Shown here: piece by piece, positions 3,136 through 26,126 of the stretch
Layout: every line of letters starts with the position of its first letter
Position numbering within the stretch: position 1 is the first letter of the stretch
From: an uncultured Hormoscilla sp.
GTDB taxonomy: Bacteria; Cyanobacteriota; Cyanobacteriia; Cyanobacteriales; Desertifilaceae
Direction: 5' to 3'
Length of the DNA: 64,000 nt
Assembly (NCBI GenBank): GCA_963921275.4
Contig: OZ001293.3
Span: forward strand, 2,336,001 to 2,400,000
Program-made: the position numbers and the translations under genes
Notes under the pieces: generated by a model
Databases searched by the model: none
What the model saw: the letters and a program-made list of their open reading frames with translations, nothing else
Told to the model about the DNA's origin: nothing

Positions 3136-3209
3136 CCCCCCAGGTCAGAATTGAACTGACGACCTCCTGTTCTTCACACAGGCGCTCTGACCAACTGAGC
3201 TACCGAGGG
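3136..3209 (-). tRNA. trnF: tRNA-Phe(GAA)
   Basis: Anticodon arm CCTGT-GTGAAGA-ACAGG; T-arm GTCAG-TTCAATT-CTGAC. Confidence 0.8.
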
Positions 3210-3213
3210 AAAA

Positions 3214-3288
3214 CGAGAGCGGAGGGATTTGAACCCCCAAGTCTTCAGTTTCGTAGACTGACGTGTTCTCCAGTTACACTACGCTCTC
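3214..3288 (-). tRNA. trnR: tRNA-Arg(ACG)
   Basis: Anticodon arm TCAGT-CTACGAA-ACTGA; acceptor GAGAGCG/CGCTCTC. Confidence 0.9.
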
Positions 3289-3292
3289 AAAG

Positions 3293-3381
3293 CGGAGAGG
3301 GAGGGATTTGAACCCTCGACGGTTTTTTAAACCGCTCTTTCTTAGCAGGAAAGTGCCTTATGACCACTCGGCCACCTATCC
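3293..3381 (-). tRNA. trnS: tRNA-Ser(GCT)
   Basis: Anticodon arm CTTTC-CTGCTAA-GAAAG; long variable arm. Confidence 0.88.
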
Positions 3382-3385
3382 AACA

Positions 3386-3467
3386 TGGGCCAGGTAGGAT
3401 TTGCACCTACAACGCATCAAGCGGGGGTTTTACAGACCCTTGCCCACGCTAATAGGCGGGCTGACCC
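3386..3467 (-). tRNA. trnY: tRNA-Tyr(GTA), atypical D-arm
   Basis: Anticodon loop CTGTAAA; acceptor GGGTCAG/CTGGCCC; T-loop GTGCAAAT deviates from consensus. Confidence 0.7.
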
Positions 3468-3498
3468 AAAATTTTTGCCCTCAAAAAATGAAGGCTAA

Positions 3499-3571
3499 TA
3501 GCCCCAACGGGAATCGAACCCGTGTCTTCTGATCGAAAGTCAGAAATCCTTGACCGCTAGACGATGGGGCC
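3499..3571 (-). tRNA. trnE: tRNA-Glu(TTC)
   Basis: Anticodon arm TCTGA-CTTTCGA-TCAGA; canonical GGTTCGATTCC. Confidence 0.9.
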
Positions 3572-3574
3572 ATT

Positions 3575-3649
3575 TGGCGCGGGGATTAGGATTTGAACCT
3601 AAAATTCCAGTTTTGGAGACCGGAGTGTTGCCAGTTACACCATCCCCAC
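3575..3649 (-). tRNA. trnW: tRNA-Trp(CCA), CCA end encoded
   Basis: Anticodon arm CCGGT-CTCCAAA-ACTGG. Confidence 0.88.
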
Positions 3650-3651
3650 AT

Positions 3652-3727
3652 TGGTGGCAGCGGCGGGACTCGAACCCGCATCGACCAAGTTATGAGCTTA
3701 GCGCTTTGACCATTAAGCTATGCTGCT
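3652..3727 (-). tRNA. tRNA with CAT anticodon (Met or Ile2), CCA encoded, two acceptor-stem mismatches
   Basis: Anticodon arm CTAAG-CTCATAA-CTTGG; acceptor AGCAGCA/CGCTGCC. Confidence 0.8.
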
Positions 3728-3737
3728 CGATCGCCAG

Positions 3738-3810
3738 AGGGGAGAGCGGGAGTCGAACCCGCGATTTTCCGCTTTGCAGGCGGACGCCTTACCAACTTAG
3801 CTATCTCCCC
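3738..3810 (-). tRNA. trnC: tRNA-Cys(GCA)
   Basis: Anticodon arm TCCGC-CTGCAAA-GCGGA; U discriminator. Confidence 0.9.
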
Positions 3811-3887
3811 TGGGAGTCCCGACGAGATTTGAACTCGCATCTTCACCTTGAGGGGGTGACGGCTTCAACCAATTTGCCTACGGGACT
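3811..3887 (-). tRNA. tRNA-Glu(CTC)-like, atypical (C33), CCA encoded
   Basis: Anticodon arm TCACC-CCCTCAA-GGTGA; acceptor AGTCCCG/CGGGACT. Confidence 0.7.
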
Positions 3888-3893
3888 TCGCGA

Positions 3894-3968
3894 CGAGGCT
3901 GACGGGATTTGAACCCGCGACTTCCTGTTCGACAGACAGGCGCTCTGGACCAACTGAGCTACAGCCTC
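3894..3968 (-). tRNA. trnD: tRNA-Asp(GTC), first gene of the array
   Basis: Anticodon arm CCTGT-CTGTCGA-ACAGG; acceptor GAGGCTG/CAGCCTC. Confidence 0.92.
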
Positions 3969-22184: not shown

Positions 22185-22489
22185 AGTAGAGGCAGCTTTG
22201 AATTAAGAAACTGAATTAAGAAACCAGGTTTTTTGTCAAAACCTGGTTTCTGTGCATCTCAATGCAAGATATTCGTAGGTTTGGTTGTCGAAAGTTATTC
22301 AAGGAGTGCAACGCAAACAACATCTATTGGTTGGGTTGAGGCACGAAACCCAACCTACAGCATTACTATTTTATATTCGCAAATACAAAAGTGAGATGCT
22401 CCCCTTTCTCGACAAGGTTTGTAGTCGGTTTTAACCGACTTTAGCTATTAGCCGGGGGTTTGAACCCCCGGCGGGCCATGAGACTCAGC

Positions 22490-24178: not shown

Positions 24179-24400
24179 TCCCCTCATTGGCATTATACAG
24201 CAGGTAAGATTGTCGGGGCGATCCGTTGGCCCGATCGCGATCGCCCCTATAAACTTTTGTCTTAATTTTGCTGCTCTCCCACCGGCAGCAGCCAGTTCCG
24301 CTGGATATATACACCCATCTCCATCAACCAGGTTTTTTGCTCGTACCGGGTTTTTTCTCGATCTCTGATACTTTAAATACTGCAACTGTAGGTTGGGTTT

Positions 24401-25269
24401 GTGCGATTCGTTCTAGCCTAACGTGGTCAAACACGGAACGCTAGCCCGGTTTCATTAGCCGGGAACTCTGACCGCATGGGGGTTAAATTCCCCTCCCCCC
24501 AGGTACGGGGGTGACACCGGTCCTCGGTGCTACGAAGCGACATCATCGTGGTGCTAAGCGAGGACTCAAATGTAGGATAACTGGCAGCCTAAGCCGGTGA
24601 CGCCGCTAGGAAAGATATCCAAGGTTAGAGCAGGCAAACATGTGCAAGCCTCGTTATAAGGAACCAGCGAAATAAGGCTATATGCGCTGGCCTAAAAAGG
24701 AAATGGTAGCTAGTATTAGTTTTAGACTCTGGCTAATATAGTACTCAAATAGCTCCCGGGGTATAGTGTGGACCTAAAGGTATCGCGAAATGTTGTTAGG
24801 GAACGAAGTAACCTCTCGTGTGCTGTCCATCAGGACAAGTTAGATGTTAAGCGCAAGCCACGGGGGGAGGGATGGCCCAAGAAGCGAATGCCCGGGGTAA
24901 TTCCTGGGATAACATCTACAGTAATGTAGATGATGCTGGGTAGCCAGCGCTGACGTGGGTCGGTGATACTAGGAAGCTGCTGGAATGAGTAATCCTAAAA
25001 AGCCACGGAACTAATCCGAAACGCAAGTGGAGGATAAGGTATGGATAACTGGTAAAACTGACTTGAAAATGGTGATACTAACGGTTATCAGAACAACCAC
25101 TCGCTAAACCAGGAAAGGGAAGAAAAGACAGGCGGCAAGGGCTAACGGAAGTAATTCCTATTAAGTCTACCTATGAAAAGGGCCTAGTACCCAGTAGCCG
25201 GATGCGGTGAAAATCGCAAGTCCGGTTCCTCAAGGGAGGGTCGGGAAGCGATTCCCGGCTCGACCCCAT
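24401..25269 (+). mobile_element. ORF-less group IIB intron (~870 nt)
   Basis: 5' GTGCG; domain V AGCCGGATGCGGTGAAAATCGCAAGTCCGGTT; domain VI GGGTCGGGAAGCGATTCCCGGCTCGACCCCAT; EBS1 and EBS2 pair with the 5' exon; no ORF of 60 aa or more inside. The 3' end is uncertain by 2 nt. Confidence 0.92.
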
Positions 25270-25300
25270 CCCGTGCCTCAACCCAACATTAGCGCGGTTG

Positions 25301-25502
25301 CAATACTTCTCGGTTAATAATCTGTCATTGCGAGGGGGAAACAAAAACCGACATTTTCGGGCTCATCGCTTGGATCCCCCCGAAGCAATCTCATGCCTCG
25401 TCGGGGAGATTGCTTCGGGGGGGTCAACTCAATTGAGCATAAGTTAATCGCGGAGTACCCCCCCTCGCAATGACAAATAAAATCATTAACCGAGAGGTAT
25501 TG
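25301..25502. mobile_element. MITE with 18-bp TIRs and 10-bp TSD (IS4-like); contains a nested TGTCATTGCGAGGGGG...CCCCCTCGCAATGACA hairpin repeat
   Basis: CAATACTTCTCGGTTAAT / ATTAACCGAGAGGTATTG; TSD AGCGCGGTTG at 25291-25300 and 25503-25512; a lone TIR at ~46419. Confidence 0.88.
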
Positions 25503-25509
25503 AGCGCGG

Positions 25510-25749
25510 TTGGGTTTCATCAGTCCGTCTCTCGTTAAAGATCTAGAGAATGCCTTGGGTCAGTATATTATATATGCTAATATCCTGGCACGAGTGGAAC
25601 CAGATCGCATTCTGTATCTAGCAGTTCGAGTGGAAATTTATAATGAATTCTTCTCAGAAGAACTCGTGCAAGTTGTTCTCGCCAACAACCCCATTAAACT
25701 GATTGTATTCGACTCAAAACAGGAGGCAATAGTAGAATGGATACACTAG
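25510..25749 (+). pseudogene. xisH: XisH family protein, C-terminal half only
   Basis: FISPSLVKDLENALGQYIIY...EPDRILYLAV...IVEWIH. Confidence 0.85.
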
Positions 25750-26126
25750 AGGCATATCGCTGGCTCATCTACCAAACATTGTCAGACTATGCTAGTATAC
25801 CTTACAGTCACGGTCAGATCAACAGTATTGTCATTGAAAGTATTGATCGCAACCATTTTATGATCGTCAAGGAAGGGTGGAATTCCGAACAGCACATTCA
25901 TCACTGTCTCGTTCACGTTCAGATAAAAAATGATAAGATCTGGATTCATTTTGACGGCACGGAAGACAGCATTACCGAGACATTGGTGGCCGCTGGAGTA
26001 CCAAAAGATAAAATCGTTCTCGCCTTCCATCTGCCCACGTCAGAAAACATACAGAATACGCGATCGCTTAAATTATACGGCCATACGGCAGAAAAAAATA
26101 TCTTGCTGAGAGGAGGTTGGAAGTGA
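25737..26126 (+). pseudogene. xisI: XisI family protein with a 3' frameshift
   Basis: KIWIHFDGTEDSITETLVAAGVPKDKIVLAFH; the typical tail (VRKHTEYAIA*) is in another frame ending ~26071. Confidence 0.8.

Follow-up and report, generated by a model that had tools for sequence, protein, structure and literature searches.

A group II intron without an open reading frame, most likely of subgroup IIB1, inside a REP-like repeat of an uncultured Hormoscilla, one of 139 near-identical copies

The DNA considered here (the window) is a stretch of 64,000 nucleotides from an uncultured Hormoscilla sp., a cyanobacterium (GenBank assembly GCA_963921275.4, contig OZ001293.3, positions 2,336,001 to 2,400,000 of the forward strand), and window positions are counted from its first letter. 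On its plus strand lies an 871-nt group II intron (24401-25271), most likely of subgroup IIB1 and without an open reading frame (ORF), which we have named fam1. The intron interrupts a copy of a dispersed repeat resembling repetitive extragenic palindromic (REP) sequences, a short imperfect palindrome with a stem of 9-12 bp; the plus strand reads ...CTGTAGGTTGGGTTT/GTGCGATTCG..., where the slash marks, here and below, an exon/intron or insertion junction, and the 5' splice boundary falls at 24400/24401. An earlier sequence-only reading had placed at this locus a group II intron splitting CTGTAGGTTGGGTTT and CGTGCCTCAACCCAAC, and had regarded it as a non-autonomous element with exon-binding sites (EBS) matched to the repeat, its presumed multi-copy landing site. 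The features of the locus are the following.

24386..24400, plus strand: 5' exon, the 5' half of the REP-like hairpin repeat (from the sequence; this flank is continuous with the 3' half in the congener G002)
24395-24400, plus strand: intron-binding site 1 (IBS1), GGGTTT, all six bases of which pair with EBS1, two of them as G-U
24401..25271, plus strand: ORF-less group II intron fam1, most likely of subgroup IIB1 (Rfam RF00029, blastn copies, twintron, tandems, orthologous empty site)
24655, plus strand: EBS2a (U), middle base of the UUA linker (24654-24656) between the 5' strand of ID(iv) and EBS2; pairs with target position -14
24657..24661, plus strand: EBS2 (UAAGG), pairs with target positions -13..-9, consensus CCTTA
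24713..24739, plus strand: EBS1 hairpin, 9-bp stem (24713-24721/24731-24739) and 9-nt loop with EBS1 AGACTC at 24724-24729
25196..25227, plus strand: domain V, with AGC triad and GAAA loop (Rfam alignments RF00029 and RF04356)
25232..25271, plus strand: domain VI and 3' tail, ending ...CCCCAUCC (Rfam alignment and a helix read from the subfamily alignment)
25272..25288, plus strand: 3' exon, the 3' half of the REP-like repeat, CGTGCCTCAACCCAAC (from the sequence; uninterrupted ortholog in G002)
22329..22361, minus strand: uninterrupted copy of the REP-like repeat, GGTTGGGTTTCGTGCCTCAACCCAACC (sequence match)

The intron and its boundaries

The presence of a group II intron, as proposed earlier, is borne out by the Rfam family RF00029 (domains V/VI), which matches positions 25193-25269 of the plus strand with 44.4 bits (gathering threshold 40), and by the 5' end GTGCG (24401-24405), which fits the group II consensus GUGYG. 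This 5' end is common to all seven ORF-less subfamilies described below and to the ORF-carrying introns of the same genome, which likewise begin GTGCGATTCGTT; the 3' terminus of fam1 is CCCCATCC. The Rfam models for domains I to IV (D1-D4) all remain below threshold (RF01999 scores 22 bits, with a threshold of 36), and domain I partly folds with covariation. The longest frame inside the intron has 53 amino acids (aa; 24768-24929), and a tblastn search of fam1 for remnants of an intron protein, using a resident intron protein as query, returned only an overlap with domain V at an E value of 1.0. Two further observations of the sequence-only reading, the absence of an intron-encoded protein and an uninterrupted copy of the repeat in reverse orientation near 22330-22360 (22329-22361 in our list), hold up in the same way.

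The boundaries proposed earlier need one correction. The repeat is indeed split; the dinucleotide CC that had been put in brackets represents the last two bases of the intron, because the other copies, a twintron, the tandem arrays and an orthologous empty site all agree on this point. After CCCCAT, the dinucleotide is CC in 138 and TC in one of the 139 full-length copies found in the genome, so that CC or TC ends them all, and variation begins only beyond. A copy inserted at the intron's own position 768 carries the CC with it (AAGTCT/...CATCC/ACCTATG, the host reading AAGTCT/ACCTATG), the tandem copies show a unit of 871 nt, and a contig from one sequencing run (X6) connects 25271 straight to 24401. 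At the orthologous locus of the congener G002 (L045) the sequence is ...GGTTGGGTTT/CGTGCCTC..., with nothing between the two halves; read out further, ...ATGCAACTGTAGGTTGGGTTT/CGTGCCTCAACCCAACATTAGCGC..., it has the same outer flanks as the window. As G002 holds the repeat uninterrupted, the intron entered a pre-existing repeat, and comparison with this empty site reveals no target-site duplication at the locus.

Copies, targets and exon-binding sites

The assembly (7.03 Mb) contains 139 full-length copies of fam1 detectable by blastn, all at least 98.6% identical and all on contig C1. No fewer than 61 of them equal the family consensus, the mean being 1.24 differences per copy, and the window copy shows 0 differences from it. 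In one sequencing run (X2), word depth is ~9,400 over the intron core, compared with ~99 in the flanks, which are unique; although depth cannot be equated with copy number, this ratio is compatible with a copy number of the order of 100. When copies with 8 or fewer differences over 40 flank positions are merged, 110 site classes remain, distributed over both orientations and including sites inside ORFs. Some copies share long identical flanks, among them several pairs with identical 70-nt flanks; part of the 139 copies therefore arose through duplication of host sequence. Copies truncated at the 5' end also occur (covering query positions 288-869, 394-869 and 468-869 in blastn) and are compatible with incomplete synthesis of complementary DNA. 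Related introns are present in all four congeneric species compared. Among the matches scored there (no more than 12 per genome, drawn from up to 196 first-look candidates), the nearest copies are 91-92% identical, the best 92%, and none reaches 95%; on this scored sample, the fam1 burst appears to be lineage-specific, recent and younger than speciation.

Over the 110 site classes, the target consensus is A-15, A-14, CCTTA (-13..-9) and GAGTCT (-6..-1), followed by A+1. The individual counts are A 79 at -15, A 51 at -14, C 75 at -13, C 65 or T 33 at -12, T 74 at -11, T 68 at -10 and A 67 at -9; in the proximal block they are G 96 at -6, A 66 or G 36 at -5, G 81 at -4, T 87 at -3, C 82 or T 23 at -2 and T 94 at -1, and at +1 A is found at 82 sites and G at 16. 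Written with its alternatives, the logo is C(C/T)TTA at -13..-9 and G(A/G)GT(C/T)T at -6..-1, and these C/T and A/G alternatives exactly match G-U wobble opposite UAAGG (EBS2) and AGACUC (EBS1). The five IBS2 positions form 5 pairs at 21 sites, 4 at 52, 3 at 30 and 2 at 7, which is far above the genomic background, where most of the 16,858 GRGTYT sites have 1-3 pairs. The preference for A-15 is probably read by the protein. The sequence-only reading had itself named copies in unrelated targets as the finding that would speak against it: the tabulated flanks (blastn), with their consensus AACCTTA..GAGTCT/A, differ from the repeat, and 135 of the 139 copies lie in unrelated targets, so that neither the matching of the exon-binding sites to the repeat nor the role of the repeat as landing site of the family can be upheld.

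The identity of the exon-binding sites was derived from other ORF-less subfamilies of the same genome, which share 72-76% identity with fam1 and each of which has its own target consensus; fam2, with 71-72 full copies, is the largest of them. In the subfamily alignment, two variable stretches stand in a conserved context, each complementary to the flanks of its own element, as listed here (element : target).

Loop at intron positions 324-329: fam1 AGACTC; fam2 TGCACT : AGTGCA; f824 TCTATC : GATAGA; f836 TTCATT : AATGAA; f831b TTAGAA : TTCTAA; f861 AGTTC : GGACT
Pentamer at intron positions 257-261: fam1 TAAGG; fam2 TCTAG : CTAGA; f861 ACATAA : TTATGT; f847 CACCG : CGGTG

In the sister species G004, too, a copy with 92% identity has different loops again, TCTAGA and AGTAA, and these match its own flank. 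In the RNAalifold consensus structure, EBS1 lies in the 9-nt loop of a 9-bp hairpin, and EBS2 is single-stranded after the helix GCCUCG and the UUA linker. Covariation was scored on an alignment of 17 rows (A3) that represents seven subfamilies, three of the rows being fam1, together with the 92%-identical sister-species copy. The EBS1-IBS1 interaction is paired in 96% of cells, with 6/6 pairs covarying, and EBS2-IBS2 in 78.8%, with 5/5 pairs covarying and 0/500 shuffles scoring as high. The single EBS2a-IBS2a pair is formed in 82.4% (AU 9, UA 4, CG 1, other 3) and covaries (1/1), and four pairs of the EBS1 hairpin stem are changed on both sides. Taken as a whole, the structure (the three pairings and the 9-bp EBS1 stem) is paired in 91.3% of cells, compared with 65.3% after shuffling, and 16/21 pairs covary; 0/500 shuffles attain the observed pairing, which drops to 33-44% when the partner is shifted by 1-3 columns. 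The location of EBS2a at U24655 follows the IIB1 rule (see below) and agrees with membership in subgroup IIB1.

These results uphold the EBS1 proposed earlier, AGACTC at 24724-24729 in a stem-loop and fully paired with IBS1, which covaries across the seven subfamilies. They do not uphold the EBS2 proposed with it (GGCCTA, 24689-24694), the true EBS2 being UAAGG at 24657-24661. The stretch GGCCTA is near-invariant across subfamilies with different targets and lies inside two predicted helices; its fifth base is T or C without tracking the target, and its pairing with positions -12..-7 in the 17 rows (49.0%) is that of shuffled rows (48.6%; 253/500 shuffles as high). Another candidate, AAGGTT at 24620-24625, the complement of AACCTT in the logo, was also discarded, as it is conserved among subfamilies with different targets.

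Against this background the window copy is atypical. Its IBS1 pairs at all positions with EBS1; the positions -13..-9, however, read GTAGG and offer only 2/5 pairs to the true EBS2, both of them G-U, and the bases at -14, -15 and +1 are T, C and C, the last in place of the consensus A. From these flanks we infer that the window copy is the product of an ectopic retrotransposition guided by EBS1 only, not of homing, and that the repeat is a bystander target, an occasional landing site and not the homing site of the family. Only four of the 139 copies lie in the repeat (C1:2360401, the one in the window, 5034907, 5473320 and 6301915); they occupy the identical position within it, pair with EBS1 only, and represent independent insertions, since their outer flanks differ. 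The genome holds 122 uninterrupted repeat copies (at most four substitutions in 26 nt), 24 of them exact, so that 4 of ~126 copies (~3%) are occupied. At the orthologous site the repeat itself is absent from the congener G003 (L044), which reads TGCAAC/ATCAGCGC, and degenerate in G004 (L043); judging from these sequences, a palindrome of ~30 nt, with CAAC at both edges, has been gained or lost between species.

As a separate observation on the repeat, neighbouring REP-like copies are mostly arranged as direct tandem pairs or triplets with a spacing of 39-183 nt, not as inverted doublets (examples are C1:4133664-4133865, 1278646-1278771 and 6398569-6398633; one triplet has an 88-nt period).

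The genome-wide load of introns is considerable. An nhmmer search with a domain V profile gave 455 hits, of which 410 have alignments of 34 nt or more; there are 300 fam1-type 5' ends, and in 249 cases a 5' end and a domain V lie 700-999 nt apart, so that the genome contains at least 249 complete ORF-less units. Intron DNA detected by blastn with 13 representatives amounts to 500,961 bp, or 7.3% of C1. Two head-to-tail arrays of fam1, one of two and one of three copies, are explained by recognition almost wholly in the 5' exon, owing to which occupied sites stay targetable; such arrays would result when an incoming copy inserts at the junction of the still intact 5' exon with the resident intron, the +1 base then being G. 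Five fam1-in-fam1 twintrons, all at position 768, exist because the intron's own sequence holds a fair target. When the introns are removed in silico, 26 of the 110 sites lie in sense and 22 in antisense orientation within frames of at least 150 aa, and 62 are neither. Antisense copies cannot be spliced out of host mRNA; that they persist is compatible with a burst of very recent date or with weak selection.

Introns are also found within introns of other types. At some ten loci (for example, C1:1059481-1061068) fam1 lies in antisense orientation within an ORF-carrying intron, after the part encoding the maturase domain and before domain V, and shortens the open frame of that intron to 486 aa; as these loci share flanks and frame, ten domain V contexts falling into one cluster, the composite itself appears to have multiplied. 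The subfamily fam2 is found repeatedly in domain I of ORF-carrying introns (C1:2406917-2409916 and about nine further loci), forming twintrons with the target ...GCAAGTAACTATGATGAGCGTA/AAGCGAAGG.

Several features of the neighbourhood may be added. Downstream of the repeat, positions 25301-25502 form a nested palindromic element of 202 nt, similar to a miniature inverted-repeat transposable element. Its terminal inverted repeats measure 21 nt, and its inner arms are found at 25320-25338/25460-25478 and 25373-25392/25406-25425; it has 84 blastn high-scoring segment pairs in the genome, ten of them nearly full length at 67-79% identity. Directly after it lies only a 3' fragment of xisH (25510-25749, positions 62-134 of 134 in the Pfam XisH profile), followed by a complete xisI (25737-26126). 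The congeners G003 and G004 have a full xisH at the orthologous place, so the 5' half was lost in this lineage along with the palindromic insertion. A split of xisH by fam1 was considered and rejected, given that upstream ORFs lack an XisH match and that the missing 5' half maps downstream of the repeat in the relatives. Elsewhere in the window, nine tRNA genes are clustered within ~830 nt of the minus strand (3136-3968), and beside them a 24-nt segment (2773-2796) gives a single match to a direct repeat of clustered regularly interspaced short palindromic repeats (RF01356, 36.6 bits with a threshold of 35). The contig C3 (31,420 nt) has 17.6% G+C, as opposed to 47.4% for the chromosome, and probably derives from another organism.

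Proposed mechanism and its alternatives

Taken together, these observations lead us to consider it very probable that fam1 is a recently amplified, non-autonomous IIB1 retroelement helped in trans, and that its window copy is an ectopic insertion into the repeat. The related RT-encoding introns that the sequence-only reading had suggested looking for do exist. The genome contains 75 matches to GIIM. Of the 70 such sites inspected, 25 fall within open frames of 540 aa or more, and these group into 12 clusters with mutual identities of 66-89%. One representative protein (590 aa, from a related ORF-carrying intron) combines RVT_N, RVT_1, GIIM and HNH domains, and its best solved relative is 6me0_C (E 2.5e-109); according to the description in PMC8643678, 6ME0 is the intron complex of Thermosynechococcus elongatus. 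The domains that define proteins of the chloroplast-like (CL) lineage (RT, X, D, En) are thus found in one resident protein, which is not encoded by fam1. The idea of a non-autonomous element mobilised in trans is indirectly supported by the lack of an ORF, the 139 copies of at least 98.6% identity and the intact reverse transcriptase (RT)/maturase/HNH genes; fam1 is most likely mobilised by such related intron proteins.

In the mechanism that we propose, fam1 would be transcribed by read-through from upstream and spliced as a lariat with the aid of the RT/maturase of a related ORF-carrying intron. The resulting ribonucleoprotein would then reverse-splice into DNA chosen by pairing of EBS1 with -6..-1, of EBS2 with -13..-9, of EBS2a with -14 and of a putative EBS3 with +1 (A), and the inserted RNA would be copied into DNA. 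The window copy would have gone into the loop of a pre-existing REP-like hairpin via pairing with EBS1 alone. The splicing and mobility of fam1 are deduced from comparative analysis, and its catalytic competence is assumed.

Several observations weigh against this scheme. No more than 6 of the 162 genomic sites with perfect IBS1 and IBS2 pairing are occupied, and further determinants must therefore exist. The base A-14, at only 51/110 sites, is weakly represented for a required Watson-Crick pair with EBS2a, and within the first 346 nt no column covaries with the +1 base as EBS3 should. The candidate bulged branch A (25263, read from the subfamily alignment) lies 8 nt before the 3' end and not at the usual 6-7 nt, a spacing longer than in the Rfam consensus (it is 7 nt in the ORF-carrying introns of this genome), and the intron terminates in CC instead of the usual A-pyrimidine. 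The ORF-carrying introns end canonically, ...GUUUAAU, their ORF extending 67 nt beyond the start of domain V; the ORF-less lineage has, after GACCCC, a variable four-base tail (AUCC, GACU, GACC, GGCU or UAAU). Moreover, no ORF-carrying intron has a ribozyme close to that of fam1, of which only positions 35-303 (67%) and 768-828 (76%) align to an ORF-carrying intron; with ribozymes so distant, the helper protein would need relaxed RNA specificity. Finally, no evidence from RNA for transcription, splicing or lariats was found, the one poly-A RNA run compared giving 0 reads on the stretch and so saying nothing about expression or splicing.

The explanation from which the sequence-only reading started, exon-binding sites tuned to the REP-like palindrome as a dedicated multi-copy safe landing site, is now highly improbable. 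It would account for the four copies that share one exact position in four independent copies of the repeat, for the full pairing of GGGTTT with EBS1 when G-U is allowed, and for the supply of ~122 empty repeat copies; yet nearly all copies of fam1 are elsewhere, in targets whose consensus is unlike the repeat, the EBS2 on which the idea relied neither covaries nor escapes the predicted helices, the real EBS2 has no partner in the repeat, and ~97 of every 100 repeat copies are empty. A weaker proposition, which could be added to the model preferred here and which we regard as possible and rather unlikely, is that the palindrome is a favoured secondary target, independent of EBS2, through its DNA structure or context, for example by cruciform or hairpin formation, by single-stranded exposure or as a neutral site. 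Seven of the 110 site classes have at most two of the five IBS2 pairs; with the repeat events counted singly, these become nine events, four of them in the repeat, although the repeat provides just ~126 of the 11,356 GRGTYT sites with so few IBS2 pairs (1.1%). For loci that are independent by their outer flanks, this is a ~40-fold enrichment (binomial p ~2e-6), obtained in a post hoc test whose class was picked after it had been seen. In the hairpin form of the repeat, five of the six IBS1 bases are inside the stem, where they should be hindered from pairing with EBS1, and a simple explanation by an exposed loop fails for this reason. Survivorship in neutral intergenic DNA may contribute, though frames of 150 aa or more are interrupted at 48 of the 110 sites. 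Since the repeat copies all have their sequence in common, the bias could also stem from a contact that has escaped notice, with no part played by structure.

The remaining alternatives concern the spread itself and its present state. It is scarcely credible that fam1 was dispersed as DNA instead of through RNA, whether by recombination, by segmental duplication or by a transposase: the ~10 copies inside the repeated ORF-carrying intron and the pairs with identical 70-nt flanks are what such a process would leave behind, but the 110 distinct flank classes, the complementarity of the sites to two loops of the element with its wobble signature, the exact ends without target-site duplication and the lack of a transposase within the element are not. 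That fam1 is a dead fossil, its burst being over and the window copy no longer splicing or moving, is improbable, if less so than the spread by DNA. The missing reads in one poly-A run, the unusual 3' end and branch spacing, and the 22 of 110 sites that are antisense in ORFs and not removable from mRNA would all suit a fossil. Against it stand the 61 identical copies, the window copy at consensus, the apparent youth of the burst relative to speciation on the congener matches scored, the 25 open helper frames that remain, and the continuing covariation of EBS2a, a kind of covariation that, as presented in PMC8643678, is taken as selection for mobility. The reading as a recently amplified element that moves through RNA with helpers in trans is accordingly the one we retain.

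Significance and comparison with known systems

The novelty of a retroelement aimed at a repeat is lost, as that claim does not hold, and the interest of the system resides in copy number and comparative data, not in a new mechanism. A tentative claim, slightly more doubtful than credible in our view, is that this is the most intron-laden prokaryotic genome on record, reflecting the very recent spread of a single ORF-less IIB1 element via the helpers of distantly related introns. If the burst is ongoing, the genome would offer a natural and tractable system in which introns invade in runaway fashion while sharing a splicing factor that acts in trans; spliceosomal introns have been proposed to originate from such a situation. 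With 139 copies, 110 targets and seven sister subfamilies, the system provides a clean set of natural data in which EBS1, EBS2 and EBS2a are defined by covariation. In these data EBS2a is seen to be conserved among ORF-less introns, and tandem arrays and self-twintrons occur naturally. The genome could serve for asking by what means ORF-less introns get round the limits of specificity, how a single maturase copes with ribozymes that have diverged, and what load the host tolerates, given the 22 antisense sites in ORFs mentioned above.

The highest published count that we found comes from a survey of 1,790 representative bacterial genomes, in which Arthrospira platensis has 101 group II introns (Miura et al., 2022, PMC8919778). 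As that survey describes it, this is, like the present organism, a filamentous cyanobacterium with expanded CL-type and ORF-less introns; the count here is several-fold higher by non-identical criteria, and the two are not directly comparable. A literature search combining 'Hormoscilla' with 'group II intron' or 'intron' found no paper, subscription-only papers and supplements being outside its reach; the nearest named relatives of a protein of the window are those of three Hormoscilla sp. metagenome-assembled genomes (85-92% identity).

With respect to target recognition, the rule for IIB1 introns as given by Monachello et al. (2021, PMC8643678) comprises a linker of three bases, the middle one being EBS2a and the one 3' of it an A, a five-base EBS2, and IBS2a at -14. 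The whole of this arrangement, stated for EcI5 and for subgroups IIB1/IIB2, is present here at 24654-24661, with EBS2a covarying. The organellar ORF-less introns treated in the same source have no statistical support for EBS2a, whereas the ORF-less introns here show it, in spite of the limited A-14 frequency in fam1. Group IIC introns beside terminator stem-loops, as portrayed in PMC8643678 and PMC8919778, resemble the four repeat-borne copies in their hairpin-linked insertion free of EBS2. Differently from them, fam1 belongs to IIB1, has a functional EBS2 and a six-base EBS1, and inserts inside the loop and not after the stem, in 4/139 cases.

Under laboratory conditions, a IIB1 intron has been observed to integrate in tandem (Gomes et al., 2025, PMC12584367). 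There, as here, a second copy of the intron (EcKTE56.groEL) enters an occupied site, and, according to that report, this is commoner for the ORF-deleted form; it concerns plasmid assays with one specific site, whereas the present arrays of two and three are natural and chromosomal.

The closest parallel is provided by T. elongatus, in which the mobilisation of ORF-less introns by the proteins of related introns has been shown experimentally, the protein selecting A-15 (Mohr, Ghanem & Lambowitz, 2010, PMC2882425). As far as the account in that paper extends, the TeI3 (ORF-less) and TeI4 (ORF-carrying) introns are like those described here, in that a cyanobacterium carries related IIB1 introns, mostly ORF-less, whose families differ in their EBS, form twintrons, insert into other mobile elements and have A-15 in the target. 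Trans mobilisation, shown there, is what we infer here by analogy. The same account serves for the differences. One is scale, with 28 introns in T. elongatus as opposed to ~410 hits to domain V and no fewer than 249 complete units without an ORF in the present genome; another is that each family there has few well-matched sites, whereas here one EBS set is used at ~110 loosely matching sites. The ORF-less introns of T. elongatus keep N- and C-terminal ORF remnants, while none were detected in domain IV here; their ribozymes are 'very similar' to those of the ORF-carrying introns, as compared with 67% in domain I here, and head-to-tail arrays are a further difference of the present genome. Thus, the kind of system is already known from PMC2882425, namely ORF-less IIB1 introns proliferating in a cyanobacterium with related intron proteins, EBS divergence and twintrons; what is distinctive here is the scale, the single EBS set for ~110 sites, the lack of ORF remnants, the distance between ribozymes, the natural tandems and the recurrent entry into a palindrome.

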